Shown here in pieces: positions 4,131-28,501 of a stretch of 28,501 nt of DNA (positions are counted from its first letter, which is position 1; every line of letters begins with the position of its first letter). The position numbers and the translations under genes are program-made. The notes under the pieces are model-generated. The model was not told where the DNA came from. It saw nothing but the letters and a program-made list of their open reading frames with translations, and ran no database searches. The stretch is from Psammoneis japonica. Lineage: Eukaryota. The stretch spans positions 248,001 to 276,501 of the forward strand of contig QPGO01000112.1 of NCBI GenBank assembly GCA_008632985.1, in the 5' to 3' direction.

Positions 4131-4200
4131 TGCATCATGGGGTCCTTTCACATTGGAGTTGGGAGTTTGAATGTGCTTCTGCTGGCTGCTGGGGGAGGAT

Positions 4201-10401: not shown

Positions 10402-12320
10402 ATGAAACGTCGCATTTTCCTTTGGGTGGTGCATGCTGCTTCATTCGCTGTACTTGATGCGGGCAGACCAGTATTTTCCGATGCTCAGTCAGAGAAGGTA
10501 TGAGATAAGAGCCACTTTTTGACACTATGATTGCTGCTCTGAGGACTTCTGATGAATTTGAAATTCGTCTCTTTGCTTTTTTCGTTGTCCCGTTTGCAGA
10601 TGAAAGTGCCAGGTCGGCGCCGACAAGACGAGTTGATTTGCCCAAATGATATTTCTGAGGTATTTCAAAGTCAGCCATCTATCATTGCTACCCAGACGTT
10701 CTGCGAGACGGATGGGGATTGCAGCTCCGTTGAACCAGACGATGGAGCTGAACCATGTTGTTTACATCCCTACTGGTACGTATGATGATTGCTCGTTATT
10801 TGATTGCCGTATGGCTTCGTCTTTACGTCTTTGTCTATTCTATATTCATTTTTCGTTGTAGTATTTGTGCCAGTAGCATGCTTGATCCACCGGCTTGCGT
10901 GGGCTCTGGCTCTTCACCGGCCACACCTGCACCTTCACCAGACCCAACGAATCCTCCGACGATTTCACCACGTTGCAGCTCACACCTGAACCTACTTCTC
11001 CAAGTCCAACTCAGCTCCCAACTACACTGCAACCTTCACCAAGTCCAACTCAGCCCCCGTCTACACTGCAACCTTCACCAAGTCCAACTCAACTCCCAAC
11101 CACACTTCCACCAACGCACACACCCACATCTGGACCTACACAAAGGCCGACGGAGCTCCCAACCACGCTTTCGCCGACATTGCTTCCTACCGAACGGGAG
11201 ACTCAAGCGCCTACCACACCACAGCCCACACTTGCAGAGGTTCCTCCCACACAGATACCGACAAATGTTCCAACAGCTACAACCCCATCCCCAACTACAC
11301 TTGCTCCAACGGGACTTCCCACAGTATCACCAACCATGGAACCGACGCCAGATCTTACAGCAGATCCCACCGCGAACCCCGCTCGTCGTCCTACACCGGG
11401 TCCTAGTGAGCCTGTCCCAGAGTCGCCTTCTCGAGCGCCCGAGTTCAACAATGAAACCCAAGCACCTACCATAGATCCAGCAGCAACGGCCCCTCCTACT
11501 CCGCCGCTTGTTGTAGTTATCCCATCAGTTGAGCTATCTGAAATGTCGCTCTATCTTCGCACGTCCGCAAGTCCGTCCAAGGCAAAAAGCCTTCAGAGAT
11601 CTACGGACAAGGAGCCTTTCTCAATTATGCATAGGTTCCTCCTCACAAAATACGACCAAACTCTAAACAGAGATCAACCTGTAGTGGATCTTGAATTGTT
11701 GTTGGAGAATGTACAGCAAGTTGGAAATCCCATTGTACTTGCATATCGATTTTTGGGAACCGTGTTTTTCGACCCCAGTGTTGCAAATCTACCGTCCACG
11801 ACACAATTGAACCGCATAACTTCAGAGGCATTGGAAAGTGAAGAGTTTCTAAAGGAATTACAAAACGCAAATGATCCCATTTTGGCACAAACAATGCAAG
11901 CGACGGTACAGGTGGAAAATGTCGAAGCAACCGTCGCGCCAACAAAGGCTCCCCAGAGGATGAGTCTGGCGTGGAAGCTTGGGTTATTATTTTGATTGTT
12001 TTGGCCGTGGTTGTAATGGTATCTGTGACAGGATTGTTGTACTTCCGATTTCGAAGAAAAAGAGAAGAGGTTTACTCCGGAGTTGAAAGTACGCCGGTGG
12101 AAGACATGAGTGTCCCGTTGGGACTTCTGGAACAGGACGCTGGTATCGAAAGCGAGCGAATAACTTCGAAGCCAGTCCCGTAGAAAAAGATGAGCTGCGG
12201 TTAGACTCTTCATATGATGAATCCGACACTCCTGGTCCAGACAAAAACGCGTCTCACGACATTTTCCGGCCTCCGCGTGGCAAATCCTCTGTGGATGCCG
12301 GTAGCGGAACGTTTTCATAA
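10402..12320 (+). CDS. Single-pass mucin-like surface protein 2 (paralog): signal peptide, small Cys-rich domain (C..C...CCLHPYCIC...C), PT stalk, SEA-like domain, TM; 2 introns, ~3 apparent 1-nt frameshifts
   Basis: Exon 1 10402-10497 (MKRRIFLWVVHAASFAVLDA..), intron 10498-10599 (GTATGA..TTGCAG), exon 2 10600-10775, intron 10776-10861 (GTACGT..TTGTAG), exon 3 from 10862. Frameshifts near 10968, 11951-11954 and ~12155. Juxtamembrane domain is clearly homologous to gene 1 (LGTVFFxPxVxNLPSTxQL..IT.EALESEEFL). TM AWVIILIVLAVVVMVSVTGLLYF. The stop is TAA 12318-12320 if the last frameshift is real, otherwise 12183. Confidence 0.75.
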
Positions 12321-12907
12321 GTCATAAGGTTCTTTTGCCTTGTTACTTCTATTGGTTCATGTTACGACACTTGACGTCCATTGAGAATAATGCGCGAGGA
12401 TTCGTTTCAGTGTATACTATTCGGAGCGCCCTCTACTACGGTACAGTGTAGTAGGTTCCTCTCTCTACAGCAGTAGTTGTCGCTGTCGCGCGACATACCT
12501 TTTATGCAACGGGAAGTAGGGCCCTATGAAAAAAGTGAGGAGGTCAATCGTGACTTGATTTCATGTTGGTCGTGACTGAAATTCAAAACGATACGCAACA
12601 ACACAGGTGAAATGTACTTCTAATAACGGAATAAAAGATATTGAATTTCCAAAATTAAATGTTAAATCCAAATATGATTATGATTATTGATTTCGTTGGC
12701 CTAAACAAAGCCGCGAACAACGATTCAAAAATCAATGAAAATTATTCAGGCATGACTAACAAATATAACCAATCATTTTCGGTGGCACGACCTCATTTGC
12801 TGTTGCTGTTGTTGTTGCTTTCACAATCATCAAAAAATCAAGGTCCGAACATGTCAAATCAAGGTCTTGTTGCTGTTGTCGATACCATGTTGAGTAGATC
12901 GAAGAAT

Positions 12908-15896
12908 ATGAATCAAATGTTACGCTTTTCCTTAGAGTATTACTGATTGGAGTCGTTATTCGTCAAGCAGAAGCAACATGCAAAGCCAATCGCGCAGGAA
13001 AAGGAAAATACAAGCACAATTGCATCTTTCCTTTCACTTATCGAGACGTCACCTACACCAGTTGCACAACTGCTCGAAATGGAGGAATTCCTTGGTGCCG
13101 TATTGATGCAAATCGTGCTGATTGGGGCGAATGCGAGGACTCACCCGAGTGTTCTGGCGATACACCGACTCCTCCTCATACAACACAAGATCCGACGCAG
13201 AGCGACCCAGCACTACCAGAAACGGACGAAACTACAGCTGCTCCAGTTCCTAATACGCAATCGCCAACTCCAGAACCCTCGGTCGGTACTCCAGGTGAGA
13301 GCAATTAGGTGAATTATGCGGTATTTAAGCTTTATTGATCGTTTCTCACCAATACACATCTGTTTTTTTTTTTCCGCTACGAAATCAGCTCCAGTTACTC
13401 CGCCGCCTTCACCTACGCCAGGTAAGGAAAAATACCTTATTGTTTCTGTTGTTATTGCTGCTGATGCTAGATGCTAGATTTTCAAGTCGTACATTCTCAA
13501 TGTTGCTTCTTCTCTAACAATTATTCTTGTGCATGAAATCCACAGCAACCGAGCCGCCTACTACTCCTATCCCTACCAATCCAACGTGTTTCGCAGATGA
13601 ACGCGGAAATGGTGTCTTCAACAAAGTTTGTCTGTTTCCATTTCGTTACCAAGGAGTGACTTACAACAAATGTGTAACAGCGGGTCAAAGGGTTCCGTGG
13701 TGTGCCGTTTCAAATGATGGGGCGTGGGGCAATTGCCAAACCTCCGATGCGTGCCCTATTGAGATCACAGCCTCGCCCACTGCTGGTCCTTTGGATCAAT
13801 CGCCTTCTACAGCTGCGCCGCAAACACCGTCGCCCACTTCTTCCTCCACACTTAAGTCGACTGGTCCACCTACGACGTCGCCACAGCCAACAGCTATACC
13901 GACCGAGAATCCCACTCGACGACCCACTAGAAATCCAACTCGACGACCCACTAGAAATCCGACGCGAAATCCGACCCGCCGACCATCCCAAGCTCCATCC
14001 ATGGCACCTTCCGAGATGCCAATCTCGTTTCAACCCTCGACTACACCAACAGAGCCCAGCACAGCAACGCCAACAATATCAATGTCAATCCCGCAGCCTA
14101 CTGTGGCTCCGACTCTGCAACCCACTCGGCCGCCGTTTACTTCTACCTTGCCACCGGCTACGAACGGACTCACCTCTGTAGTGCTTTCGCCAATGGTGCT
14201 CAAGTTGGTTGTAGAACCAGCAAAGAGTAGAGGTCAGCGTTTTTTATCCGAGCGGGAAGATGAACTGGTGGAATTCGTCAAGATTTATCTACTCGATACA
14301 TTCTCTATGCGACTGCCTTCAAACAAACAAGCGTCAGAGATGCAGTTGGTTGTCATTGACGATTCGCTGCGAAACAACGATACCCTTTGGGAAACAAGAA
14401 TGCTCGGAAGTGTATATTTCGGTGCAGCCGTGACAAACCCACCGTCACAACGAGAATTGAACGGCTTGACAGAGGAGGCACTGGAGAGCGAGGAATTTTT
14501 GAGTCTCCTAGCAACAGCCAACGATCCAGTCTTGTCGAGTTCCAAGCAAGTGTCACTCGATTTCACAGATATCGACGGTAATGTACAGCAAGATCCAAGC
14601 GATACCGGTGGCGGAAGTAACAATACCGTGATTGCCGTTGTAGCATCCGTCTGTGCCGTGGTGGTTTGCTTGTTGATTTTGGGCTTTGTCTTTGTGTTGT
14701 ATCCCCGCATGAAACGACGACAACAACTACGAAAGCGAGCCAAGGCCAGTACTCCGCTGACCGCAGCTGCCGACGGATTCTTTGAACTTCCATGTGATTT
14801 GGACATGTCGTATCAGAACGGTGTCAGCGGCAGTGAAGTCGAATCCACGTATACCTATGGAAAGGAAGATGAGTCAGTGTCTATTGCTGCTTCCAATTAT
14901 GCAGCATCCATGGTGGGTCCTCCTAGCTTGGCAGGGTCCTTTATGATTCCAGAGAGTGACTCAGAGGTGGACGAAACACCAAATAAACAAAAGGATTTTG
15001 TTGCCTTTGATTTTGATAACAATGGAGCAATCAAGACCACAACGCAGAATGACGATACGGATGAGTCTGATTGCGAGCCATCGCCGTTTGTAGGTCGGAA
15101 GCTATATGATGCTAACAATGCGACCCAAGAAAAAGACGCTCCTCATGACGATCTCGACGCAAGCAAAGGTAATGGATTGTTCAACAAGGTAGAGGAGAAC
15201 TCGTCGTTGTCGCGATCCATTCAAGAAAGTCCCATAATGCAGCCGTCAGACGCCGACGTTACCCCGAGAACAAAGCAGCGTCTCGCCGAAGACACACGCC
15301 ATTGGAAAGAAAAGTGCGGTATCGACGACACTCCCATTCGCACCGATGATTTGTATTCACCAAGCAAGTTGAATATGTCTGACGATGACGATGATGATCT
15401 GCCTTCAAGCACGTTGGACCCTAGTGGTGATCCTCATTCGCCAAGTGAGACTAACGCTTACGGAGATCTTCGTTCCCCGAAGTTGAATACATCGGGTGAC
15501 CATCTTTCCCCGAAGACGCACGTTTCCGGAGAAACTCATTCGCCACTTGAAATGAATACATCGGGCGATCATCTTTCCCCGAAGACGAACGTTTCCGGAG
15601 AAATTCATTCGCCACGTGAGATGAATACAACGGGTGACCATCTTTCCCCGAAGACGAACGTTTCCGGAGAAACTCATTCGCCTAGTGAGATGAATACATC
15701 TGGTGACCATCTTTCCCCGAAGACGAACGTTCCCGGAGAAACTCATTCACCACGTGAGATGAATACATCTGGTGATAATTGTTCTCCAACTAAGTTGAAC
15801 GCTTCTGGTGATCATATTTTGCCCAATCAGGTGAATCCACCGGGTGATCATGTTCCGCCAAGTGAGATGGACGCTACTTGTGATGAGATTGTATGA
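12908..15896 (+). CDS. Single-pass mucin-like surface protein 3 (paralog): signal peptide, two FN2 domains, PT stalk, SEA-like domain, TM, long acidic Ser-rich cytoplasmic tail with tandem repeats; 2 introns
   Basis: Exon 1 12908-13294 is in a frame missing from the ORF track: LRVLLIGVVIRQAEA-TCKANRAGKGKYKHNCIFPFTYRDVTYTSCTTARNGGIPWCRIDANRADWGEC. It needs +1 nt in the T run at ~12926-12929 to reach ATG 12908. Intron 13295-13388, 33-nt exon 13389-13421, intron 13422-13545 (GTAAGG..CTAAC..CACAG). Exon 3 is in frame with ORF 13527-15896, carrying the second FN2 (CLFPFRYQGVTYNKCVTAGQRVPWC..WGNC) and TM VIAVVASVCAVVVCLLILGFVFVLY. Confidence 0.85.
15483..15790 (+). repeat. Coding tandem repeat, 69 bp (23 aa, MNTSGDHLSPKTNVSGETHSPxE) x4 plus degenerate flanking copies
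   Basis: (A/T)TGAATACA at 15483, 15552, 15621, 15690 and 15759, exactly 69 bp apart. Confidence 0.92.
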
Positions 15897-16572
15897 ACAA
15901 ATAATGAGGCGCTAGACGAGTCGAACGTATCGAAATACTAATCTAAGATCTACTAGCTAGAGAGTATCATGGTTGTCGTGGACTTATCGACTACAAAACT
16001 GGACCCACTTCGTGTTCCTGCAACCAATAGACAGGATTTGGGATATCTCAGAATCATCAACCATCGACGACGAAAGCTCTTTCACGCATTCAGATGCGAC
16101 TCGAGAATGAGGAAGCCACGCCCACGAAACAATTCAAGATCCAACATCTCCCAGCTTTATCATTTAAAGCCTTAGTAGTCTATGCAGCTCATGCATTTCA
16201 AACGACCTCCTTGAGAGGTGACGTTGAGGAATATAGCTACATAGAGGGCCCTACGACTTCAAGCAACAGATTGAGGAGGTACATGCAGCCCGCTGGGTAC
16301 TGTAGATTTCGAGACAATGCAAGGCCTTGGCGACGAAATCCACGATAACCAAGAGCAAGGAAATGTGTTTGTTTCTGCTACTTTAAGGCCGCTTCTCTCC
16401 CCACGACGAGGAACCGGCTGTAAGCACTTAAGAAACGCTACTAGAGTTGCCCTAGACTCTAGTTCCACAAATAATTCGTAGAAGCCTTGAGGGAAGAGAA
16501 GAAGACTGGCGTATAGCCAAGCACAAGGCTCATTCCCATCGCAAGGGCTCAACCGTGCCACTTGATCAAAAG

Positions 16573-16950
16573 ACTCTGATGACATTGAAAGAACTCCATG
16601 ATGTAGGTATCAAGTCGCCTCCAAAAAAACAGGTGGCATGCTTAACAACACGATGTCGAGGCTCAGCGGCCAGGGGCTTATTGTGTACCCTGACAGCGCA
16701 ACAGTGAGTCTTACTCTAGCCGGCATCGACAAGGCTGGAGGTGATGATCCCGAACAATTGACCGAAGAATATCAGGTATAAATCAGAAAGTCGCTTCAAG
16801 CCTGGAGATCAAGCTTTCGATACTCTTCTTGATGGACGCCTGTACACTCGAAATGAGGTGGTGGCTCAAGTCCAGTTTGGCTGGAAAAGCAAATTTGAGC
16901 CATCCAGTCCCCAGGTTGTCGATCGCAGGCCTCTAAGCTACGCTAATTGA
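16573..16950 (+). pseudogene. Possible decayed gene for a winged-helix-like repeat protein
   Basis: Protein-like fragments across frames: TLMTLKELHDVGIKSPPKKQVA / MSRLSGQGLIVYPDSATVSLTLAG / AFDTLLDGRLYTRNEVVA. These resemble a helix+wing pattern (L...GLI.Y....V.LT..G) that I recall from diatom hypothetical proteins. Interrupted by frameshifts and a stop. Confidence 0.3.
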
Positions 16951-17282
16951 TCATGGTGAGAACTAGGAGAAGTCACTCAAACTATCACCAATCTCGCTTT
17001 CCCGCACGGAGATCGTGTTGTCTAGAAGGAGGTTACACCTCGTTTCCTGTTCGCGGTAAGCGGCCATGGATACTAGAAGTGAGAAGCTTAACAATAGTAA
17101 CAGAAACATACGATGTTTGCTTTACTCACGTCTTAAATGCATTTTTCTTTCTTTTGAGTCCTTATTTATGACTGCGTTCTGTAGCTTCGACGTTAATATC
17201 ATTCTCCTTCGCAAATTCTTTTGATATATTATATCATATTGAGCGATGGGTTTCAAACATCCGCCATGATAATAACTACTGG

Positions 17283-18418
17283 TTACTGGTTGGGACACTC
17301 TTGAGGAACGGATTTCCATCCCCTCGATGTCAAGATTTGTTCCACGCCACTGACATGTGCTAGTCCCATGACTGCGACCATACTACCTAATTGATCGAGA
17401 TTATCAATCCCGTTGGCCATGTATAAATCCCGTTCTGCAACAATAGCGGTATAAAGCTGAGGCGCCAGTTCTTTGAATTCCCGCATTTGCAATTCGATAC
17501 TCTCCTTTGCCTTGCTGGTCTCCACGTATCGAGAAAAGTCTTGTCGAAAGGCGTCATCCTTCAAATCCTCTCGAGTAGGGCTCAACATGGAAGCGTCGTC
17601 TGGCTGCAGTTGAGCCATTCGCTCTTGCCACTCCGAAAAGAAGTTTGGATCCGTCTCGGACAATGCTTCGGTGACTCGCGACAAGGTCATCTTAACGTCA
17701 CGATCGCCAAAGACAATCTTGGAACCAATCTTCTTGGCTTGTTGAATAGCAATAGAAAACTCTTGTGACGACTGAAATCCTGCCTGTTCCATCTTGTCGT
17801 ACATGCCCTTTATATCTTTTTCGACGGATGCGGTTGTTTCCGTCTTGCTCGTTTGGGTATGCGTAGGTTTGGTCTTTGTATTGTCTTGAGGCTGTACAGA
17901 ATCATAGGAAGCTGGCGGTAGGACTGCCAAGAGTCGCCCATCATATCCTGGTACAGTTCCGTCCTTGTTGATGTTGTACATGCCTCGTACCACATTTCTT
18001 ACATTCAACTCCACAAATACAGCGTCCGTGAGAGTTTCTGCTACCAAATCTCCTGCCAAAGCTGCTGAAGCTGGAGAAAGATGATCTGTGCCCAGCAAAA
18101 TCACAGTTCGAGCGTTCTTATGCCATACTGATACACAAGGTCACAAAGTAGAGCTTTTGCTCTTGTAGTGGGCGAAGCTATCGTTGCTGCCCAAGAAGTA
18201 TCTTCTTTTGCAGTCAAAGCAGAAGCTGCCACTACAGAAGCCGCTACCGTAGAGATCCATTCTCGTCGTGTTGAAGTCAAACAAAGGACTGCAGTACAAG
18301 TCCTGGCTCTTCTTGATGGAGTAGAGTCAATTGCTACCCACGCGGATACCGGAATAATCAGGCTTGGAAACACAAACGTCAGCCACAACAACACCCGATG
18401 AAATCCAGCATTTGACAT
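17283..18418 (-). CDS. TraB/PrgY (TraB/Tiki superfamily) domain protein with plastid-targeting presequence and twin-arginine signal; one frameshift at ~18139
   Basis: Motifs ILLGTDHLS, AVFVELN, EFxxAI, FGDRDVxxTLxR, IVAERDLYMA, VAVMGLAHVxGV. ORFs 18101-18418 and 17283-18104 join with +1 nt at GG 18139-18140, giving LCDPCVSVWHKNARTVILLGTDH. N-terminus has a signal peptide ending VSA|W, a transit-like region, then TRREWISTVAASVVAASAL..SWA. Confidence 0.85.
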
Positions 18419-18914
18419 CGCTTCAACGTCCCAGAACCCATTTATCTATCCAAGGGACAAAACTAGAGATGTTTACGGATGCTGTGGGAGCTATTCTGCC
18501 TCCATATGCACATCAACTGAACCAGCGGCCTGCTATCATCGGCCATGGGCCTTGGGCCACATGCATCAAATAATTGATGTGGGTGGGCTTTCGATTGAAA
18601 CGTGTAGATTTCAGTATACTTCTACGTGAAAGAGCTCGTGGATGAAGTGTCAGACAGATGTCACCACGCCTGACAAAAACTCGTGTTATTTACACGGGGG
18701 AAAATGGGCCGTTGTCACGATTGTCACGATCCGGGGTACTAAAAACAATAAATTCGAGCTCGTGTAATCGCATTTGGCAGTGCTCAGGCAGTGCACTCCT
18801 GAATAAATGCTGATATACTGTCACGAATATAGGCAGTTTAAGTGCTGTTGGCGATTGGTCCACTGTCGCTTATTTAGTGGCCCCAGTGGCGTAACATCTC
18901 ACAATTCTAGAACC

Positions 18915-19325
18915 TGTTGATGCTGTTCAACACTCTGTCTTGTCTCACACCCAATTCTCAGCTGTCATGGCAGTGTTTGTTCACTTTGTCAGAGCCAATG
19001 TGCTGTGATGTTCAACGCCTGGAACCGGCATCACGAACGGCACGACGGTGTCGTTGCGATCGATCGATTTTTGCAGCAAGCGCCATGTTGGTCCCATGGT
19101 TGCTTGCGTGATCGCTGAGTCCTTCACACATGTCAATGTTCATGGACATGAACGACATGCTCTTGGAGAAAGAGCTGTGATCCGTCAGACATGACATCAG
19201 TGAACGGAGTGTTTGATCACGTGGATGGAATGTGTTGGCCAAGGCATGTGAACATTCGTGACAAAGACAACACAATGATTTGTGCATTGAGGTCTGTTGT
19301 TTGATCACACACATTTCATTAATCA
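18915..19325 (+). repeat. Putative 5' LTR of the outer element
   Basis: Starts TGTTGATG at about the point where TpA depletion begins and ends CATTAATCA (imperfect inverted termini, TG..CA). The partner LTR is outside the window, so the ends are unverified. Confidence 0.4.
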
Positions 19326-19544
19326 AGGTGAGTTGTCAAACTGTTTGGACACTGTGCATGTGGACACATGTCTGTGCCAATCATTGCTTGGGAGTGATGC
19401 CGCCTGCTCGCGGGTTCGCCAAGTAGAAACCGCCAAATCGGCACGAGAACCACACATTTTTCTCACTTTTCTCCGCTCACACAAGTGGATGCTCACGCGT
19501 CAAAACACAAATGAGCCCGTCAAGGCTTTGCCACTGTCAAGGAC

Positions 19545-20864
19545 TTGGAACAGGTCCCTTTGACAGAAATTGCTGACATGACTGAGGGCATTGTGAAGAG
19601 CTTGGACACCGCCGCTGACCCCCAAGTCCGCTTCCCATGCCTGGTGAATCGCAAGCTCAAGGCACTGCGCGCATGGATTGACTGCCGCAGGGCCCAAAAT
19701 CAAGAGCCGACTGCTGCTCTCTTTGCTGGCGACGTTGTTGGAACATGGACAGCATGTCTCACGGAACTAGAGCAATTCAAGTCTGCAGACTCAGACGACG
19801 AATCGGCTGCCAAAATGGCCGTGGAGCTCAAGAACCTGCATGACTGGCCCACCTTCCAAGAGTTGCTGGAGACCGAACTGCGTCACCACTGCAGTGCCGT
19901 CACCGGCATGCCCCTTGTCTGCCTGATCATGGAGCATGAAGAAAACACCGCTGAAATGTTGGCTGCTGCCTGCACTGCCATTGACGAGGACCTTGTTGCT
20001 GCCACCCGACTTGCAGGAGCTCAGCATGCGCAGGACAGGCAATGCCTGTGTGATCTCTTGAAGAAGTTGGTGACAGGGGGGCCCGGATGGGCTTTTGTCA
20101 AACCTTCCAATCGCAATCGCGATGGTTGTGCTGCTTTCTTTGCACTCAAGAGGCAGGCGGAAGGATCGGCTGCTGCCACTGCCCGAAAGAACTGTGCTTG
20201 CGCACAGATTGCTGCTGCGAAGTACACCGGACGGGGTCGATTCACTTTCGACCAGTGCATTCAGCGCCATCAAAAGGCTCACAACGACTTGTCTGAGCTT
20301 GATGAACCGGTGGCTGAGACCAAGAAGGTCTCTGACTTTCTCAAGGGTGTCTCTGACCCTGGGTTGGAAACTGGCAAGAGTGCAGTGGATGGAGACCCGA
20401 TGAAGCTAGTGGATTTCGAAGCATGCCAGCAGCATGTGAAGACTCTGGCAGAGAATGCTGAGAACCGCAACGCTGACACTCGTGGAATCGCATCCATCCA
20501 ACGCCGCAACAACCAGTGTGGAAACCCTGGCGGAAAGCACCAACCTAAAGAGGACAAGCCCAGGATCCGGGCAGGCCATTGTCCTGTTGAAGAGTGGAGT
20601 GCTCTTGACGGTCCTGAGCGAGAGCAAGTCCAAAAGCTCCGCGATGCCAAGAAAGCCGAAAAGAAACGCAAAGCTGCAGCTGCGTCCTCGGAGGCTGAGT
20701 CGGTTGATGCCAAAACTCGCGCTGTTAAGAAAGTGGCTGTTGCCGAGCCTGATCCACAACCTGCTGATGAACCAAAGGACTCCAAAGAGTCTGACAAACC
20801 TGCCGCCAATGCAGGCACCCAGTTCGGACGTGGCGCACATGAGAAACCTCAGAAGGAGGAATGA
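19545..20864 (+). CDS. gag: Gag of outer copia element (true start further upstream and decayed)
   Basis: CoDi-type Gag features: G.PL.(Y>C)LI, D...L(Y>C)DLLK.LV..GPGWAFVK, RDGxAAFFALKRQAEG, A(Y>C)AQIAAAKY.GR.RFTFDQ(Y>C)I.RHQKAHNDL, KKV.DFLKG, C-terminal AG.QFGR.AH. Only one Tyr in 439 aa. Confidence 0.85.
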   Translation: MEQVPLTEIADMTEGIVKSLDTAADPQVRFPCLVNRKLKALRAWIDCRRAQNQEPTAALFAGDVVGTWTACLTELEQFKSADSDDESAAKMAVELKNLHDWPTFQELLETELRHHCSAVTGMPLVCLIMEHEENTAEMLAAACTAIDEDLVAATRLAGAQHAQDRQCLCDLLKKLVTGGPGWAFVKPSNRNRDGCAAFFALKRQAEGSAAATARKNCACAQIAAAKYTGRGRFTFDQCIQRHQKAHNDLSELDEPVAETKKVSDFLKGVSDPGLETGKSAVDGDPMKLVDFEACQQHVKTLAENAENRNADTRGIASIQRRNNQCGNPGGKHQPKEDKPRIRAGHCPVEEWSALDGPEREQVQKLRDAKKAEKKRKAAAASSEAESVDAKTRAVKKVAVAEPDPQPADEPKDSKESDKPAANAGTQFGRGAHEKPQKEE

Positions 20865-21056
20865 ACAGTTGTGCCAGCACCAAAAGGCACAGAACCGAAT
20901 GTTGCCAAACCTGCTGGCACCACACATTTGTCTGAGTGATTCTCAAAGGACACACATGTCTCTTTGTCATCTGCTGGAAATTCAGATGATGAAGCAACCA
21001 CTGATTTGGACTCACACGCTGACACGTGTGCTGTTGGGTCCAATTTTATAATGTGC
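20865..21056 (+). pseudogene. pol: Outer element pol, N-terminal part (aspartic protease active site), in frame with gag
   Basis: Reads TVVPAPKG..LSE*FSKD..TDLDSHADTCAVGSNFIMC up to the insertion site; internal TGA at 20937-20939. Confidence 0.8.
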
Positions 21057-21332
21057 TGACAGAAAATGAAGGCAAATGGCAAGAATTCAAACAATGACTC
21101 CTTACTGCTGTCTAAATGGCAGATGAGTCTCCGCTCAGAGACCGTCACAGGAGCCGAAAGACGTGTGAGTCGGTATAATCGGGCTACTGTTGTTGTTCTT
21201 GTGAGCCTTGTGGCTCGAAAGCAAACTACATCGCGCGTGAACGCGCGGAACTAAAGCACACAAAACTGTGCACGGTAAACTAAACAGCACGCGATGCTTC
21301 GCACGCACCTAAATCCTGTTCAAATCCTGTCA
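21057..21332 (-). repeat. 3' LTR of inner element (276 bp)
   Basis: Matches 26780-27055 with 10 substitutions and no indels. Confidence 0.97.
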
Positions 21333-24300
21333 CTCCCCAGTTTGCTTGAGGAGCCACAGAAACAGATTCGACTTCGGATGGAATGAAGTTCCAGAACATG
21401 AGGGGGCGGAGAAGGTCCCAGATTTGGGAGCAACCCCAATGCTTGCTGAGAATGTCAGCAGGGTTGCGGGAGCCTTCGATGAAGTGGAACTCAAGGTAAC
21501 CAGAGGCAATTGCCTCACGCACACGGTGGAACGATAGTGCGGTGTGTCGCTTGTGTAACTTGGAGTGCGGGATGGTGGCACTGTCTACAACCGACTTGTT
21601 GTCACCGAACATGTAACTAACGTTACGGATCGGGACGCCAAGGTAGCGCAGGGTGATGCGCAGGTCGATAATCTGCTCAACACAAGTCCTTGCGGCAACA
21701 AATTCAGACCCGTAGGTCGCAGTCTCCACGGTGGCTTGTTTCTTAGAGAACCAATCAGCCGGGAATTTGTTGAGGAAGTGGAGCATTCCCATGACAGAGC
21801 GTCCGGTGAGCATGCAATGGCACAAGTTTGCATCGACGTAGTGGGTGGCAGTGACGAACTTGCCAAGGGGCGGTGGAGCGTCCTTCGGGATCATCTCTTC
21901 TGCTTCACCACACACGGAATGCATCCATTCATAGGCCGGAGCAGGGAGATCCGAATGGTCGGGCTCTTCCGTACGAACGCGGAGAGCACCGTGTCGCATC
22001 TTGGAGAGGCACCCACAGACGCGTTTGGCACGATCCAAGTGGCCTTGACAGGGCGCAGCTCGGAAGCTAGAGAGTGACATGACGGCCGTGGTAATGTCAA
22101 TTCGACCAAGGGACACTGCCCATTGGAGTGAACCAACAAGAGACTGGAACTTGTGAATGCCATCGGGTCCCAGCAGTTCGGAAGTGTCCAGTTCGGGGTG
22201 GTCACCCTTCTCTAGAGGTGACAGGGCGTTGGTGGCAGGTTTCTCCCCAAACAGTCGGGCACAGCTGTCGACCATGCGCTCGATGTACTTGCGCGGAGAC
22301 AGGCACAAGGTTCCATCGGGTTCCCGGGAAAAGTCGCAACCCAGATGGAACTCAATGGGTCCCGCACCCTTGAGCTTGAACTTGTGCTTTTCCGTGAGAG
22401 TGTCGACAAAAGATTGAGGGTCCTTCATGGCAATGGCGAGGTCATCCACATAAACGGCAATGCATTCACAGTGGTCGCCGTTCCTGCGCATCCAAATGTC
22501 AGGTTCGGCGTGGCAGGGGAAGAAGCCTTCAGCTCGCAGGCAGTCGGCGAAGCGCTCGTGCCAGCGGAGACCGGAGCTGCGCAGTCCATACAGTGCCTTG
22601 TGGATGACAAGGATGTGTCCTTCGAGTTTGCCGAACTCGGGTCCAGCTACAATGTAAAGCTTCTCCTTGGTGGTGGCTTCAAGGTGGGCATTGCCAATGT
22701 CGGTGGCCCATGTCTCCAACTCGTTGAGTTCGGCCAGGAAAATCATCAGCCGAAGGCCACGGAGGGAGACCACTCCGGAGTAGACACTGTCGACAGGTAC
22801 GTCCGTGAGGTGCCCGTCGGCTACGAGTCGTGCCTTGTGGCGACCGTCGTGTTTCACATCGTACACTAGGTGCACTCGGATCTTCTTGTGTCCCGCAGGA
22901 GGAGTGGAAGACTTGAAGGGCCCGCAGTCATGGAAGACTTCGTATTCGTTGAGTTGGTCCATCTCGAGATTGGTTGCGTCTCCCCACTTGCGGTTGCCGT
23001 TGCGTTCGTCTAGTGACATGGCGTGTTTGTAGTTCCGGGGAACTTCGCACCCACACTTGCAGCGGGGTGCAGTGCGGAAGGAGCGAAGCTTGGCTTGGTT
23101 GGCCATGCGAAATGGCTTCTTTTGGCGCCTCGCGATGGTGCGGAACCGCTTCCAGCCATCCGTGTCGAGGAGTCCGTTCTCTCGTGCATAGATGGCACAG
23201 GTGACGGGGTCGTCCTTGGCGATGATGGCAAGAGGCTCGGACGTGATCTCCCCACTTTCCCATTCAAGCATGATGTTGTAGCTGGAGCCTTTCCAGGTTG
23301 GGTCGTGAGGCTTCAGAGGTCCTTCGTGTGACACGATGCGTCGAAATTTCCAAACAGTGGTGTCTTCGTCTTCTTGCTCAATGTGATTCATGATGTCATT
23401 GCAGGCAAGGACTTCCTCGTATTCGTCATTGTTGACAGAGCAGACGAACTCAGTGAGCTCGGGATTGCCGTTCACTTTCCATTCGTGGTCTTCGACGGCC
23501 TTGACGATGCGAGCTCTGTGGCGTTGTCCGTCCTCTTGTGGCTGCATGAGGAAGGTGCGTCCAATGATGTCTTGCGGATCGAAAACTGGCATCTTGGGTG
23601 TCCTGATCTCCCCATCAGGAGAGTCGACGGGGTTGTCGTCATGGCGAGATTTGATGATGGGTTCAGGTGGCTCCCCATCAGGAGGATCAAGACGCAGGTT
23701 TCGAGCGGCAGGATCGGGGGTAGCGGAGCGGACGTTGGACCAGCAGAGGATCTTCTGAGTCTCGTCAGATAGAATCTTGAAGGTCATCTGGTGGCCGACG
23801 TGCTCAGCAATGCCAACGAAGCGTCCACGCAACTCACGGGATTCAGACGGCCAATCGGAGTCATCGAGGTGGAAGCACACGGGTTCCCACCAGTGAAAGC
23901 GAAGCAATGGGCTGATGTCCGGGGTGGAGCCAGTGAGAGTCTCGAGGGGCGTGCGCCAGTGGAGACGTGGGGACGCTGCATGGTTGAGCATGAAGCACAC
24001 ACACATGAGCGCCAGCAGCCATGTGTGGGCGGGCGAACCAAAACGATCCATGACAGTGTTCGCCATGCGCTTCACGGTCTGGTGTCGACGCTCGGCAAAG
24101 TTTTGGTGTTGCTGGTGAGGCTCACTTTGCCAGCTAGAGATGAAGAGGGCGCGCAGGATCCCGAGCACTTTGTTGCTGATCTCAACTTGAGCACGGTCGC
24201 TAATGAGTTTGGATGGGGCACCACGTGCACGGATCTGATCCTCGAGTGTGTTGACAAACTCTTTGTCCGTCTTGGTGCCGCAGACGTCAGTGACGGTAGA

Positions 24301-25455
24301 CTCGGTGCCAACAAACAGTTGGGCGCTGGTGTGACCAGAGTCGACAGCCGGGGTGTCGGCATGAACGGTGTCAGTGGCGACAGGCTCGTTGCGGCGGTGC
24401 ACATTAAGGGCGGGGTTGGGTGATTTGCAGGCCTTGCGAAGGTGTGTGCCGGCGGGCATGCGGGCGCACTGTGTGGTGCAGTCAAAAGTACGACGGACCG
24501 CATCGGCAGGTGGGAAGCCAAAGCAAGGCCGAAGAGACTCGAAGGGGGGGTCCTTGGGCTGTACAGTGCGCTCCGGAGGTGGAACGTCATCGCCCTGGGG
24601 GCCAATCGCATGCAGGTGACACTCGTAGAACACGTCGTCGTTCGGAATGAGGTGGTCATCGAGGGCGGACGCGTGATCGGCAGACAAGGAAGCAGACAAG
24701 ATGGTCTCGTTGACAACGACACGATGACGGCAGTTGCCGCATTCGTCAAACAGGTTGGCAGTGGGATCGTCCTGCAGGTCAGAGATCGCGTCGCACCACT
24801 GGTCGTCGTCAGTGACAGAGTGATCGAGGACGGAAGGGTCCCATGTGTCATCACCGGTGAGGATGACATGGGGCAGGGTGTCCCATTCGGCGTCAGTGCA
24901 AGGTCGCATGGCAACACAAGGCAGGCCAGCCTTGATGTCAATGGGGATGACACAGCCATCAGGAGTGGCAATGCGTTGCAAGCCGTTGGGCACCTTGACA
25001 GAGCGATCGTTGACATCCTGTTTGTGCCATTCGAGCTGGCCGCAGGAATGGATGGTCTTGCCCTTTCCCGTGCATGCGTGCTGATGGAGGATGGCGATGA
25101 CGGGACCACGCTGGGTCTCAATGACGGCACCAGCGGTGACAATGGGGATGTCCACCAATTGATGATCGTCAATGCCCTGAACGTCGACTTGGCGAGAGGT
25201 GCATGCAATGACGCGAACGTCGTTGCCAGCAATGCCGCCGTTGGCCCCACGATCGACTAGAGCGCCAGTGCGTGTGGATCGATGAGCAGAGGCAGAGCAA
25301 ATGACATTGTGGTTGTCAACGCGGCGGCAAGTGCGGCCGCCAAGTTCCATGTTATCTGCAGAAGCTGGCGGGGTAGAGGAAGCGGCGGATGGCCCCGGTC
25401 GACTGGCATTGGGGGCTTGGTTAGGAGACAACAGACGTTGCAGATCACCGGGTGG
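21280..25455 (-). CDS. pol: Pol polyprotein of inner element (protease, integrase, reverse transcriptase, RNase H); open but heavily missense-mutated
   Basis: PR LVDRGANGG; IN VATDT..LISDRAQ..SEPHQQHQNFAERR; RT HLVYDVKHDGRHKARLVADG, DIGNA(Y>H)L, ALYGLRSSG, VYVDDL; RH YVDANL, ETATYGSEFVA, FGDNKSV, NPADILSKHW. The first ~225 aa of the 1617-aa track ORF are out-of-frame read-through of the UTR and gag. Confidence 0.95.
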   Translation of the reverse strand, partial: PPGDLQRLLSPNQAPNASRPGPSAASSTPPASADNMELGGRTCRRVDNHNVICSASAHRSTRTGALVDRGANGGIAGNDVRVIACTSRQVDVQGIDDHQLVDIPIVTAGAVIETQRGPVIAILHQHACTGKGKTIHSCGQLEWHKQDVNDRSVKVPNGLQRIATPDGCVIPIDIKAGLPCVAMRPCTDAEWDTLPHVILTGDDTWDPSVLDHSVTDDDQWCDAISDLQDDPTANLFDECGNCRHRVVVNETILSASLSADHASALDDHLIPNDDVFYECHLHAIGPQGDDVPPPERTVQPKDPPFESLRPCFGFPPADAVRRTFDCTTQCARMPAGTHLRKACKSPNPALNVHRRNEPVATDTVHADTPAVDSGHTSAQLFVGTESTVTDVCGTKTDKEFVNTLEDQIRARGAPSKLISDRAQVEISNKVLGILRALFISSWQSEPHQQHQNFAERRHQTVKRMANTVMDRFGSPAHTWLLALMCVCFMLNHAASPRLHWRTPLETLTGSTPDISPLLRFHWWEPVCFHLDDSDWPSESRELRGRFVGIAEHVGHQMTFKILSDETQKILCWSNVRSATPDPAARNLRLDPPDGEPPEPIIKSRHDDNPVDSPDGEIRTPKMPVFDPQDIIGRTFLMQPQEDGQRHRARIVKAVEDHEWKVNGNPELTEFVCSVNNDEYEEVLACNDIMNHIEQEDEDTTVWKFRRIVSHEGPLKPHDPTWKGSSYNIMLEWESGEITSEPLAIIAKDDPVTCAIYARENGLLDTDGWKRFRTIARRQKKPFRMANQAKLRSFRTAPRCKCGCEVPRNYKHAMSLDERNGNRKWGDATNLEMDQLNEYEVFHDCGPFKSSTPPAGHKKIRVHLVYDVKHDGRHKARLVADGHLTDVPVDSVYSGVVSLRGLRLMIFLAELNELETWATDIGNAHLEATTKEKLYIVAGPEFGKLEGHILVIHKALYGLRSSGLRWHERFADCLRAEGFFPCHAEPDIWMRRNGDHCECIAVYVDDLAIAMKDPQSFVDTLTEKHKFKLKGAGPIEFHLGCDFSREPDGTLCLSPRKYIERMVDSCARLFGEKPATNALSPLEKGDHPELDTSELLGPDGIHKFQSLVGSLQWAVSLGRIDITTAVMSLSSFRAAPCQGHLDRAKRVCGCLSKMRHGALRVRTEEPDHSDLPAPAYEWMHSVCGEAEEMIPKDAPPPLGKFVTATHYVDANLCHCMLTGRSVMGMLHFLNKFPADWFSKKQATVETATYGSEFVAARTCVEQIIDLRITLRYLGVPIRNVSYMFGDNKSVVDSATIPHSKLHKRHTALSFHRVREAIASGYLEFHFIEGSRNPADILSKHWGCSQIWDLLRPLMFWNFIPSEVESVSVAPQANWGVTGFEQDLGACEASRAV
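21333..21345 (-). other. Polypurine tract of inner element
   Basis: - strand ..CAAACTGGGGAG directly abuts TGACA of the 3' LTR. Confidence 0.7.
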
Positions 25456-25837
25456 GCAGTGGCTTGCGCTTGGTGAGGTGCGCCAGGATGGGATTGTCCG
25501 AAGTGCAGTCGGGGCTGAGGCGGCAGGCAAGGAACTCGTCATGCGTGAACAAAGAGGAGTCGTTGGCAACGTCAAGACCTTTGTGTGCTTCAACAATGTA
25601 CAGACTGACCAGGGCTGCTGACATGTTCTTGTGACCACGGGGCAAAGGGATTGCATTGGTGCCGTTGTCGCACTCAAGCGAGTCGATTTGGGATGGCATG
25701 AACGTGAACAGTTCCTGATGTGAGTCCGTGCCGTCTTGGGCCAAAGCCAAACGAAGAGGACTCCCAGCACCTTGGGCAAGCACGGTTCCAACCACGTGCT
25801 CGAAACCATCGGTTTGTTGCTGACGAGTGAGAACCAT
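25445..25837 (-). pseudogene. gag: Truncated gag of inner element: N-terminus fused to the pre-protease segment
   Basis: GCCATGG start at 25837: MVLTRQQQTDGFEHVVGTVLAQGAGSPLRLAL...DEFLA(Y>C)RLSPD, then directly SDNPILAHLTKRKPLP. Removing one base at 25454-25456 joins it to PGDLQRLLS of pol. Confidence 0.7.
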
Positions 25838-26765
25838 GGCAGACAAAAAATGGTGTCAGGACAATCAATTCTGGTTGGGAAGCGAAGGTGGACTCGAAAC
25901 TTGGGTGAGAATGGACTTGACTTGAAATGGACTTGACTTGAAATCTTGAACTGTCTTAAAATCAGAAGTCGCCGGGCTTTGTTATCCCGTTCGTTGTCAA
26001 GTGCTAAACTTCCTGTCCGGTCCGTAGAGTTGTGCCGGCACGTCCGAACCCGCAGCCAGCGGCGCTTTGGGTTGCTTGCGAGCGGAGCAGCGGGTTGCAA
26101 ACCCCTGCAGGTAAGCTGACCAGAGGTGGACAAGACCCCCGAACCGTTCTTATTTTATGTCGGTTGGATTTCCCGATCAGGCTGGCCAGTTGACGTAGGC
26201 GTCAGGTGCTGTGGACGAACGAACAAACGCGGGAAAGCACCCTCGCCCCAACGCAGGCTGTGGTCACGGCCACTTGCTCTCACAGTCATCCTCATGGACC
26301 TAGTAGAACTGTAGAGCACCAGTAGTCCGGGGTAGATCAGGTACAATGGACTCGGTGTGCTTGTAGAGTGGTGGCAAAACCGCAGTCTGAAGAGTGGGTA
26401 CAGGTTCTTGGCCGTGAAGATATGTATATATACACATGTCTTCAGCGACGAAGATCCTTGAATATGTAGGGTTCTTGACCGTTAACCGATGAATAGGTAT
26501 GTCAAGGGATGAGGATCAAGGATAGACTTGGACATGACCGTTGAATGCATGTCTTCAGCGATCAAAGGTGGTGCAATCAATCCAGATGTCCAGCGGCAAG
26601 GAGACTTGACGGTGACGTTAACTTCCTGCCGATGCCCTGGTATTGAATGCGCGTAGACTTGCCGATGTATGTAGAATATATACGGAGGTCCACGTAGAAT
26701 TAAAAAATAGCGTCGTTGGTAAATCAACGACGACGATGGCGGTTGCTCAATGGGTTGACAATGAG

Positions 26766-26779
26766 CAAGACTGTTAATC
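26766..26779 (-). other. Primer-binding site complementary to the anticodon arm of tRNA-Asn(GTT)
   Basis: + strand CAAGA-CT-GTT-AA-TC immediately inside the 5' LTR has the geometry of tRNA positions 27-40 with a GTT anticodon. There is no canonical TGG-type PBS. Confidence 0.7.
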
Positions 26780-27055
26780 TGACAGAAAATGAAGGCAAAT
26801 GGCAAGAATTCAAACAATAACTCCTTACTGCTGTCTAAATAGCAGATGAGTCTCCGCTCAGAGACCGTTACAGGAGCCGAAAGACGTGTAAGTCGGTATA
26901 ATCGGGGTACTGTCATTATTCTTGTGAGCCTTGTGGCTCGAAAGCAAACTACATCGCGCGTGAACGCGCGGAACTAAAGCACACAAAACTGTGCACGGTA
27001 AACTAAACAGCGCGCGATGCTTCGCGCGCACCTAAATCCTGTTCAAATCCTGTCA
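26780..27055 (-). repeat. 5' LTR of inner element (276 bp)
   Basis: Matches 21057-21332 and keeps TpA/CpG at most variable sites. Confidence 0.97.
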
Positions 27056-27060
27056 TGTGC

Positions 27061-28501
27061 TCTGATGTCGACAGAACTGTCGTGGTGCACCCTCACTCCA
27101 AAAAGCACGCACCAATGGAAAACATTCCCATTTGCACGGCTGCTGCCGTGTGGGTTGATCCAACTGATGGACAACCACACCTTCCACTGGTCCATGAGGC
27201 CATGTTTTTCGGGGACAAAGATGACTGACACTCTCCCATGCCCCAACCAACTGCGAGCGAATGGACTGACAGTCCACGATGCCCCTTGCCAGTTTGATTC
27301 GACTGGCACACACTCCATTTCTTTCCCTGACTCGAAGATCAGGATGCCATTGCGAGTGCGAGGTGTTGCTTCAGTCTTTGATTCACACAAGCCAACAAAG
27401 GAGGATCTGGAGAACCTCCCCCAGCTGGAGCTCACATCACCCCTGAGATGGGAGCCTTCCACTGATGCCCTGGTGCAAAAGGAGGAAGCGCATGTGTGTG
27501 CCAGTGTGCGCCAAGGATCAGCAAAGTCTGATGGACAGTCGACGACGATGAATGCAACCAGGTGTGTCGCTTCCATTCATTCATGCCAAACGTCCCATCA
27601 TGACGAGAATGTCATCATGGATGCCAATGACGACGATTCTCTGCATCGCCGCCTGGTTGCTCAGGCAAATGTCTCCCACAACGACACTGAGGGAGATGGG
27701 CTGCACGACCGGCATGACCCAGATGTCCACCCAGATTGTGCCGAGCAGAAACGGGTGCATGCACTGTCGACCTCGAGTCGTGCATCGACCATCACACCTG
27801 AGATGCTTTCTAAAAGGTGGAACATTGGCCTGACGGCCACTGAGAACACCCTTAGAGTGACGACCCAGGCAGGGGTCCACAATGTCTGCACACCATCCGA
27901 ATGGAAAGTCCAGAAGAAAGCCCCTTGGCTTGAGTTCCCTGCTGTCAAGGGATGCTTCTACTCTGGCCAGATGTTTTCGAAGGTTAAATCGACACATGGC
28001 AAGATGGGAGGAAGCGCATTTGCCAATGGAAGAGGGTGTGACAGGTTCCATCCTTGGAAGAGGAAACAGGACCACCCAAATGCCGTCATGTCATTCGTGC
28101 ATGACACTGGCGCACCGCAAGTCCTTGTGTCAGATGGCATGCCGGAAATGGCGGAAGGCCAGACCAAAGAGATTTGCAAGAAATGCAGGATGCACCAGGA
28201 GGTGTCCACCCCGCACAGCCCCTGGCAGAACCCAGCCGAGGCATCCATTCGTGAGTTGAAGAAGAGAGTCCGCATGACTCTGCCCCAGACTGGTGCTCAC
28301 AGGCAACTTTGGTCCTGCAGTGCCAAATGGACATGTGACATCCGACACGTGATTGCGAGTGGCACATCGGATGTGGGAGGACGAGTCCCAGAAGAGGAGG
28401 TGACAGGTTCAACACCTGACATCTTGTCCCTCTCTCTCTTTGATTGGCATCAACCTGTCTGTTGCTGCATGCCTGTGGTGGAGTTCCCACACAAGAAGAA
28501 G
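27061..28501 (+). pseudogene. pol: Outer element pol continued: rest of protease, GAG-pre-integrase region and integrase core; runs off the window
   Basis: SDVDRTVVVHP..IPICTAAAVWVDPTDGQPH..HEAMFFGDK, then a +1 frameshift at ~27217-27220. The frame from 27221 is open to the window end (so absent from the ORF track): CPNQLRANGLTVHD..LELTSPLRWEP..ITPEMLSKRWNIGL..TLRVTTQAG..GAPQVLVSDG..PHSPWQNPAEASIRELK..TGSTPDI..FDWHQPV. Confidence 0.9.

Follow-up and report, generated by a model that had tools for sequence, protein, structure and literature searches.

Long terminal repeats of a copia-type retrotransposon point to loss of TpA in repeat DNA after integration

The element described here, a defective copia-type retrotransposon in a 28,501-nucleotide stretch of DNA (the window), has probably been altered since its integration by a mutator that acts on DNA and changes TpA to TpG or CpA, together with ordinary decay of CpG. 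It would thereby join a recently described process known from one unrelated alga, and is not categorically new.

Results

A single insertion of a defective element

Spanning 21057-27055 on the minus strand, the element is a copia-type LTR retrotransposon; its LTRs are 276 bp long, and 5 bp of target sequence, TGTGC, are duplicated at its ends. The LTR termini read TGACAG...CTGTCA on the element strand. Repeat search and pairwise alignment gave a single pair of direct repeats, 21056/7-21332 and 26779/80-27055, with 96% identity. The features of the element are as follows.

21052..21056, no strand: target-site duplication TGTGC, left copy, from alignment of the LTR flanks; repeated at 27056-27060
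21057..21332, minus strand: 3' LTR, 276 bp, from repeat search and alignment; 10 TA and 18 CG
21280..26154, minus strand: open frame of 1624 codons, pol plus read-through, from the ORF list; TpA rho 0.24
22264..22902, minus strand: copia-type reverse transcriptase, Pfam RVT_2, frame residues 1085-1297; E = 7.5e-29, 101.5 bits against a cut-off of 31.6
25445..25855, minus strand: N-terminus of gag in a different frame, residues 1-114 of relatives, from tblastn with 7 relatives (3 matching) and the ORF list
25504..25505, no strand: breakpoint of an internal gag deletion, from unmatched residues of relatives and loose contig ends at 25504 and 25505 in X1-X4
26780..27055, minus strand: 5' LTR, 276 bp, from repeat search and alignment; 15 TA and 20 CG; G at 26907
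27056..27060, no strand: target-site duplication TGTGC, right copy, from alignment of the LTR flanks

The open frame with its RVT_2 match places the element on the minus strand, so the first-pass annotation had labelled the 3' and 5' LTRs correctly. Reverse transcriptase occupies residues 1085-1297 of the 1624, and room remains upstream of it in the frame; Pfam searches of the window copy and of two unmutated relatives found no integrase family. Relatives matched in the same frame solely from ~25560 downward, and the frame is open because TA loss has removed TAA and TAG stops. About 360 codons of the gag of relatives are absent (residues ~115-476 are unmatched in tblastn), and contigs of other copies diverge from the window on either side of 25504/25505.

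The view that this was one clean insertion, with LTRs that came to differ after integration, is borne out by the 5-bp target duplication. It is also in line with empty-site joints (21053 to 27060) in contigs of paralogous copies of the host repeat, although the sides of these joints are only 22-30 letters long and lend weak support. Given the duplication and the joints, the LTR differences should be younger than the integration.

TpA loss is limited to repeat DNA within the window

Within the window, loss of TA is limited to repeat DNA. TpA rho is 0.00-0.05 over positions 1-7000 and 0.05-0.1 in the flanks of the element, with TG/CA in excess, and the lowest value in the window, 0.00, is accompanied by TG/CA of 1.8-2.0. 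In the gene region at 7400-18900 (fn2-domain and TraB genes) TpA rho is 0.57-0.78, and the low-TpA borders fall at ~7087 and 18908. A protein-atlas search with the TraB gene returned its family but no informative taxon. Over 57 bins rho(TA) is inversely related to rho(TG+CA) (r = -0.89); across 500-bp bins rho(TA) has a maximum of 0.93, and TpA is nowhere in excess. Three further zones belong to this landscape.

18909..21051, no strand: left part of the older host repeat that carries the insertion; nearly TA-free
26250..27055, minus strand: TA-normal zone comprising the 5' leader and 5' LTR; 47 TA, rho 0.86
27061..28501, no strand: right part of the host repeat; 4 TA in 1441 bp

The only TA steps in 18909-21046 are at 19320, 19424, 19768, 20223, 20407, 20546 and 20726, and two further steps, at 21047 and 21049, adjoin the insertion site. 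The best explanation of this arrangement is that a defective copia-type element landed in an older repeat that had already been stripped of TA. Pfam assigned no family to three flank frames of the host repeat or to five frames from 1-7000, a sub-threshold MSG match aside. Region 1-7400 contains old chromosomal duplicates, tandem or segmental, which differ by 27 CA/TG doublets and in which Pfam found no retroelement signature; these doublets imply that the process acts in place on non-LTR duplicates too.

The two LTRs differ by transitions at pyrimidine-purine steps

A scripted comparison of the LTRs found 10 differing bases, 9 transitions and 1 transversion, or nine events if the doublet is counted as one. 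Both the sites and the contexts given in the first-pass annotation were recovered in full: four TG/TA, one CA/TA, a TG/CA doublet, two CA/CG and one transversion. The differences are listed as 3' LTR base/5' LTR base.

21096 (5' LTR position 26819): G/A, TG versus TA
21118 (26841): G/A, TG versus TA
21146 (26869): C/T, CA versus TA
21167 (26890): G/A, TG versus TA
21184 (26907): C/G, the sole transversion
21191 and 21192 (26914-15): T/C and G/A, doublet TG versus CA
21195 (26918): G/A, TG versus TA
21289 (27012): A/G, CA versus CG
21303 (27026): A/G, CA versus CG

TA in the 5' LTR thus corresponds to TG or CA in the 3' LTR at five sites, and CG to CA at two; all five single differences that involve A/T are of the TA versus TG/CA type. 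Pyrimidine-purine (YpR) steps cover 144 of the 276 LTR positions (52%), and all nine transitions fall inside them (P = 0.0029). Positions able to yield TA versus TG/CA by transition make up 24% of the LTR, which gives P = 0.044 for five or more TA-type differences among nine and P = 0.0011 for seven or more when the doublet is included. The pattern of YpR transitions between the LTRs is therefore genuine, though few sites carry it. That TpA loss outnumbers CpG loss, as had been proposed, holds as a matter of counts (5/15 versus 2/20), but the difference is not significant (Fisher P = 0.11).

The five TA-type differences all lie within 100 bp (21096-21195). When TA and CG are taken as ancestral, the singly polarisable changes are distributed 7:0 in the 3' LTR (P = 0.016 under symmetry), which implies either that the process is patchy or that one LTR end has been converted or mis-assembled. 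Among the contigs that cover 26907, all 30 in X1 and all in X2-X4 have C, as does the 3' LTR, and none has G; the G of the window is either an assembly error or a base found in the 5' LTR alone.

Both strands are affected, as was originally claimed. The TpA-type changes of the 3' LTR comprise 4 TG and 1 CA on the plus strand, and pol carries 13 Tyr>Cys and 5 Tyr>His changes on the element sense strand, a lean opposite to that of the LTR; the difference in lean between LTR and pol is borderline (P = 0.056).

Tyrosine codons in pol give the direction of change

Conserved columns were defined with an outgroup set of 120 proteins of 60-72% identity. The element differs from them at 21 of 32 conserved Tyr columns (13 C, 5 H, 2 F, 1 W) and at 41 of the remaining 621 conserved columns (Fisher P = 6e-16), so that Cys or His stands at 18 of the 32. 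The reverse change is absent: none of 25 conserved His and none of 6 conserved Cys is changed, and none has become Tyr. Conserved Trp (n = 17) and Gln (n = 17) show no RIP-type change and no stop. The Tyr>Cys/His pattern from which the first-pass annotation had taken its polarity is accordingly a strong one, 18/32 against 0/31 conserved His or Cys turned to Tyr. It is distributed over two zones.

21432..23280, minus strand: partly mutated zone; 11/21 conserved Tyr codons kept, 9 Cys/His, 1 Phe
23295..25299, minus strand: saturated zone; 0/11 conserved Tyr codons kept (9 Cys/His, 1 Phe, 1 Trp); TpA rho 0.00-0.42 in 250-bp bins

The two zones differ in their conserved Tyr codons (Fisher P = 0.0045). 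The polarity in pol is TA to TG/CA, both in the window copy and in other copies. At the LTR sites a TA-ancestral polarity is strongly, if indirectly, supported by the Tyr pattern of pol, by the other copies and by the TpA rho of the surrounding repeat.

Other copies carry the same kinds of change

The family has a very high copy number, in the thousands: 12,631 X1 contigs belong to it, and 1,124 X1 contigs fit both LTRs and may have been placed on whichever matched better. Other copies show independent Tyr>Cys/His changes at five conserved-Tyr codons where the window has Tyr and 20-74% of contig depth has Cys or His. At codon 1400, which is Tyr in 98 of the 120 outgroups, the window has CAT and 63% of depth has TGT, an opposite-resolution doublet of the same kind as that at 21191-92. 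Among the 40 variable places listed (of 295), 33 are YpR transitions, and 14 are places where the window has TG/CA and other copies have CG; of the sites that differ between the LTRs, these 40 include 26907 alone.

Conserved-Tyr codons at which the window has Cys also have Cys in most other copies at all three that were listed, and part of the pol mutation is for that reason older than the integration. Mutation has reached 56-100% of the Tyr codons in pol, far more than the 0-33% load of the LTRs, and much of this heavier load may have been inherited from source copies that were mutated earlier. Two informative LTR pairs of metagenomic relatives are without the pattern; in one (L001) 5 of 17 differences are in YpR steps, and in the other (L046) 10 of 20 are transversions. 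An IUPAC pattern of 32 letters, built from the invariant core of the LTR, matched both window LTRs (2/2) and had no matches in metagenome_contigs, viral_contigs or genome_contigs.

Discussion

Proposed process

In the process that we favor, a mutator would act on chromosomal DNA and replace A:T by G:C at TpA in either strand, leaving TpG or CpA, and a second process, CpG to TpG/CpA decay, would be of the ordinary kind. The LTR pair would then be a record of the post-integration share. The 3' LTR would have lost TpA five times inside 100 bp, with a strand ratio of 4:1, and CpG twice; at the doublet, an ancestral TA or CG would have been resolved differently by each LTR. The likeliest chemistry would be deamination of adenine in 5'-TA-3' on DNA, with G read at the next replication, and delivery might be in short, largely strand-coordinated tracts onto silenced repeat DNA. 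We infer the substrate (DNA, not RNA or cDNA), the enzyme and the tract-like delivery from these patterns. A broader proposal, which we hold to be possible but doubtful, is that the TpA eraser is an ancient repeat-directed adenine-deamination defence on DNA, common to stramenopiles and Rhizaria, which would act in short strand-coordinated tracts on silencing-marked chromatin and spare the 5' LTR and leader, and that LTR pairs could act as natural clocks and preserve the footprints of individual mutator events.

Alternative explanations

An alternative that we judge unlikely is that one LTR end was gene-converted from another copy, or that assembly or polishing mixed alleles, so that the TA/TG contrast is inter-copy polymorphism. 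With 12,631 X1 contigs in play, many sites are indeed polymorphic for TA versus TG/CA at 20-98%, G at 26907 is absent from every contig, and 66% of the window's sampled words are present in the best run. The confinement of the changes to one LTR, with the TA-type ones inside 100 bp, also resembles a conversion or mis-polishing tract, but a processive mutator predicts such clustering equally. The intact target duplication rules out unequal recombination between two elements, and the polymorphism would itself stem from the same TpA process in chromosomal copies.

The changes might instead have run in the opposite direction, all nine transitions being C-to-T deaminations in which a RIP-like process or decay of non-CpG methylcytosine created TA. 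Five CpA/TpG events would then belong to the 5' LTR, two CpG events to the 3' LTR, and the doublet would represent one CpG event in each. This reading needs a single chemistry and splits the events more evenly between the LTRs (6:3 versus 8:1), and the LTR data, taken alone, agree equally well with a 5' LTR that gained TA from CA/TG five times; moreover, nowhere else in the element does TpA rho reach the 0.81-0.86 of the 5' LTR and leader. The leader value of 0.86, however, is near the 0.57-0.78 of the gene region and not above normal, TpA is in excess nowhere (maximum rho 0.93), and TG/CA is in excess where TA is low (r = -0.89). In pol, TA-containing products or stops are found at 0/25 His, 0/6 Cys, 0/17 Gln and 0/17 Trp, against 18/32 Tyr gone to Cys or His, and a RIP-type change would break the 1624-codon frame, yet that frame is open. 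We consider this direction very improbable. RIP itself is rejected on direction, there being no TpA excess, an open frame of 1624 codons, and no change of His, Gln, Trp or Cys to Tyr or stop at conserved columns.

Least probable of the three is editing before integration, by an ADAR-like activity on dsRNA or by a deaminase on reverse-transcription intermediates. LTR differences could arise in this way if editing of one LTR strand followed the copying of plus-strand strong-stop DNA. Mutations are much denser in the pol body than in the LTRs and leader, one strand carries four of the five TpA-type LTR changes, and ADARs favor a U before the edited A, according to the text of the preprint 10.64898/2026.01.13.699255. 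That text also treats ADAR as a metazoan family, while the host genes here point to a diatom-like alga, and it reports that the Bigelowiella natans signature arises during clonal growth in an integrated virus that is single-copy and transcriptionally silent (10.64898/2026.01.13.699255). In the window, the 27 CA/TG doublets in the 1-7400 duplicates come without a retroelement signature. RNA edits, finally, would enter both LTRs alike, but these LTRs differ at nine transition sites, and both strands are affected (4:1 in the LTR, 13:5 in pol); the argument of the first-pass annotation against RNA editing is upheld on these two grounds.

Pol eta-type errors at WA motifs were also considered. ApA would be expected as a target too, and no AA/AG difference exists between the LTRs, but only five sites bear on this.

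Comparison with known systems

In a full-text literature search, no account of TpA erasure turned up for diatoms or other stramenopiles. The signature itself appeared in one publication, the preprint of Mettrop et al. (bioRxiv 10.64898/2026.01.13.699255), whose supplements lay outside the search; it deals with TpA-specific hypermutation of DNA that giant viruses and virophages have integrated in B. natans. According to its text, 230 of 231 mutations in hypermutable regions of mutation-accumulation lines were A>G or T>C, and all GC-biased mutations were at TpA in chromosomal integrated viral DNA (10.64898/2026.01.13.699255). As far as that text goes, the two systems share A:T to G:C change at TpA only, giving TpG or CpA by strand (10.64898/2026.01.13.699255), and the targeting of foreign or repeat DNA with host genes spared (here rho 0.57-0.78 in genes versus 0.00-0.1 in repeats). 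In the long term both show clusters of windows in which TpA is low and CpA+TpG high, and among the low-TpA coding sequences reported there, domains of reverse transcriptase and DDE endonuclease are over-represented. The differences are that B. natans is a chlorarachniophyte and the host here a diatom-like stramenopile, that the targets here are LTR retrotransposons and other repeats, that erasure here is near complete (rho 0.00-0.1 versus the 0.45 given in the preprint text for the B. natans virus region), and that CpG decay is superimposed. Timing comes here from an LTR pair and, by the preprint's account, from experiment there; action in chromosomal DNA during host propagation is something we only infer, from the LTR pair and the 1-7400 duplicates.

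Methyl-CpG deamination of silenced transposons has a counterpart in 2-4 of the 10 differing bases, which are CG versus CA/TG, but that process leaves TpA untouched and explains the minority class alone. RIP turns CpA/TpG into TpA, creates stops, and is linked to the sexual cycle and to RID. The present process would be its mirror image, with TpA destroyed, frames open and G+C raised. What the two have in common, from the portion of PMC2621366 consulted on ascomycete fungi, is that dinucleotide-specific transitions riddle repeats and kill transposons, with sharp borders beside intact genes.

A last comparison is with deamination directed against selfish elements in RNA or cDNA. APOBEC3 editing, for its part, produces gradients in HIV. 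ADAR hyper-editing of repeat RNA and APOBEC3 editing of retroviral cDNA resemble the present case in opposing selfish elements by deamination, and the 5' U preference of ADAR fits the TA context here, at least as the preprint text describes them (10.64898/2026.01.13.699255). On the same partial account both are pre-integration processes, acting on one strand or on RNA, in which both LTRs inherit the change, unlike the differing LTRs and two affected strands found here.

Implications

If our reading is right, a second, distant algal lineage rewrites TA to TG/CA in selfish DNA, and the mechanism of one 2026 preprint would be a genome defence more widespread among eukaryotes. A long open frame in a repeat would then not be evidence of an intact gene, since TAA and TAG stops have been erased, and mutated elements would be missed by homology search, as the flanks without a Pfam match illustrate. 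LTR pairs offer a cheap means of telling mutation in the chromosome apart from editing of RNA or cDNA, and a measure of tract size and strand coordination. Ages based on LTR divergence would be inflated in such genomes, and the overestimate foreseen for this element is supported: its LTRs diverge by 3.6% over all sites versus 0.76% (1/132) at the non-YpR sites that the process leaves unaffected.

Structure and insertion of the retrotransposon

The only long direct repeat pair in the window, located by a repeat search, bounds a copia-type LTR retrotransposon of 5,999 bp (repeats included) whose LTRs, read on the element strand, start with TGACAG and end with CTGTCA. Its features are:

21056/7-21332 and 26779/80-27055: long direct repeat pair (3' and 5' LTR)
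21280-26154, minus strand: sole long frame of the element, carrying a copia-type reverse transcriptase (RVT_2, E = 7.5e-29)
21052-21056 and 27056-27060: target duplication TGTGC at both element ends, from alignment

Public-run contigs in which 21053 is joined to 27060, with the element absent, represent empty-site paralogous copies of the repeat that received it; these joints favour a clean insertion, weakly because their short sides span only 22-30 letters. The empty-site contigs have TGCAC where the target duplication has TGTGC, perhaps a further TG/CA doublet (joint sides of only 22 letters). The copy itself is defective: window 25445-25855 matches residues 1-114 of its relatives in a frame other than the long one, no counterpart of the relatives' residues about 115-476 was found in the element, and contigs of other copies depart from the window on either side of 25504/25505, marking the breakpoint of an internal deletion in gag that removed about 360 codons present in those proteins. 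Upstream of about 25560 the 1624-codon frame is a spurious read-through, since the lack of TAA and TAG keeps it open.

Differences between the LTRs

The LTRs of one element are identical at integration, and thus any edit made in the RNA, or any error in the first cDNA copy, is found in both. The first-pass annotation had reported ten differing bases and read them as changes that arose on both strands after integration, against ADAR-type editing. Alignment and script reproduced the ten exactly (3' LTR/5' LTR): four TG/TA, one CA/TA, one adjacent TG/CA doublet, two CA/CG and one transversion. Nine differing sites show change after integration and on both strands, as had been proposed; the strand lean is 4:1 in the LTR, and pol leans the opposite way, 13:5 (pooled 14:9). 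ADAR- or APOBEC-type editing is rejected because the LTRs differ and both strands are altered, and we consider it likely that the differences reflect DNA-level change after integration, the polarity at the LTR sites being deduced from other comparisons (below).

Pyrimidine-purine (YpR) steps cover 52% of LTR positions and contain all nine transitions (9/9, P = 0.0029); the TA-type class is enriched at P = 0.044 (five sites) or 0.0011 (seven bases). The only non-YpR difference, the transversion, is either derived in the 5' LTR or an assembly error, since the G at 26907 is carried by none of the contigs there (30 from sequencing run X1, and those from X2-X4), all of which have C like the 3' LTR. 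There are 15 TA and 20 CG in the 5' LTR and 10 TA and 18 CG in the 3' LTR, and 10/10 TA of the latter are also present in the former. All seven changes that can be polarised singly (five TA, two CG) lie in the 3' LTR (7:0, P = 0.016). All five TA losses lie inside 21096-21195, where 5/10 TA are lost vs 0/5 in the inner half of the 3' LTR; this cluster may instead stem from gene conversion or from a chimeric assembly, the family being very abundant (12,631 contigs placed in X1).

On the + strand, 5/6 TA-type changes in 21096-21195 are A-to-G (doublet counted). The 13:5 ratio of Tyr>Cys to Tyr>His in pol leans to the other strand (Fisher P = 0.056). These opposite leans hint at strand-coordinated tracts.

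Direction of the changes

When pol of the window copy was compared with 120 proteins of 60-72% identity, 21/32 conserved-Tyr columns were changed (13 Cys, 5 His, 2 Phe, 1 Trp), as against 41/621 other conserved columns (P = 6e-16). Reverse changes were absent: 0/25 conserved His and 0/6 conserved Cys are altered, and stops occur at 0/17 Gln and 0/17 Trp. Tyr makes up 1.6% of residues in the element vs 3.0-5.0% in relatives, and Cys 2.8% vs 0.5-1.6%. Among family copies, YpR transitions account for 33 of the 40 listed variable places (295 in all), the LTR transitions lying outside those 40. Five conserved-Tyr codons kept as Tyr in the window are Cys or His in 20-74% of contig depth. Codon 1400 is CAT in the window, TGT in 63% of depth and Tyr in 98/120 outgroups; it is a TAT resolved on opposite strands, a pattern that the LTR doublet also shows.

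From pol, the other genomic copies and window composition, we infer that TA was ancestral at the LTR sites. A RIP-like gain of TA predicts the reverse of all three. A degenerate LTR-core pattern gave zero matches in three public collections (metagenome, viral and genome contigs).

TpA depletion across the window

1-7086: TA-poor repeat domain of 7 kb, 11 TA in all
within 1-7086: tandem units of 189-197 bp; also dispersed duplicates spaced 2.1-3.3 kb apart
within 7434-15896: host genes, two frames with a fibronectin type II (fn2) domain, then Pro/Thr-rich 39-69-bp tandem repeats; normal TpA
17283-18140: host gene of the TraB/PrgY/gumN family; normal TpA

TpA rho is 0.00-0.05 in 1-7000, where CpG rho is 0.03-0.37, 0.05-0.1 in both element flanks, and 0.57-0.78 in the gene-bearing 7400-18900, with sharp borders at about 7087 and 18908. 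Where TA has been lost, TG and CA rise to 1.8-2.0 (r = -0.89); a TpA excess was seen in none of the bins across the window. Old duplicates inside 1-7400 differ at 27 CA/TG doublets. At the border, about 7087-7235, TA is retained in a duplicate that lies immediately beyond the domain.

The window holds 39 open frames of at least 150 codons. In TA-erased DNA (1-7000, 19000-21050, 27056-28501) long frames occur in several frames on both strands, because TA is part of two of the three stop codons; they are no evidence of genes.

Among 5.8 billion proteins the TraB gene has 8 relatives; those that carry a name come from diatoms, at 35-43% identity (a Thalassio... transcriptome entry and Cyclotella cryptica). 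Judged by sequence, the host is a diatom-like alga to which none of the organisms represented among those proteins is closely related.

Uneven load

Conserved Tyr is kept at 0/11 positions in 23295-25299 and 11/21 in 21432-23280, and TA at 10/15 in the 3' LTR; the 5' leader plus 5' LTR is TA-normal (47 TA, rho 0.86). At 3/3 conserved-Tyr codons listed with Cys in the window most other copies also have Cys, so the pol load is partly common to copies. This shared load may go back to source copies that already carried mutations and were mobilised in trans, selection having preserved the LTR and leader, which act in cis; the LTR comparison times only the LTR pair's own few changes. The uneven load fits either such inheritance or tract-like, chromatin-guided targeting.

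Comparison with known systems and relatives

RIP is the mirror image of the TA loss seen here, and is rejected on direction. The element shows TpA-specific hypermutation of a recently described kind. According to a 2026 preprint on Bigelowiella natans mutation-accumulation lines, two integrated viral regions gained 231 mutations, of which 230 were A>G or T>C, every one of those at TpA; over the long term this leaves TpA low and CpA+TpG high, and an ADAT2-like adenine deaminase is the proposed candidate (10.64898/2026.01.13.699255). The window bears the same signature, but differs in host lineage, in its targets (LTR retrotransposons and other repeats), and in near-complete TA erasure with CpG decay superimposed. 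A full-text literature search found no account of TpA erasure in diatoms.

Of 570 confirmed metagenome matches, the 80 best were kept and fall in 67 loci that encode relatives. TpA rho is at least 0.50 in 66 of these loci, and the YpR pattern is absent from their two informative LTR pairs. One such pair (locus L001, 1-456 and 7493-7948) has 17 differences, all transitions, 12 of them C/T in pyrimidine runs and 5 in YpR, a different, strand-biased spectrum. Locus L051 (1-2766; 62% protein identity to the element) has 3 TA in 2,766 bp (rho 0.02) and 24/25 conserved Tyr changed (12 His, 6 Cys, 6 Phe), and the same erasure has therefore affected at least one environmental contig.
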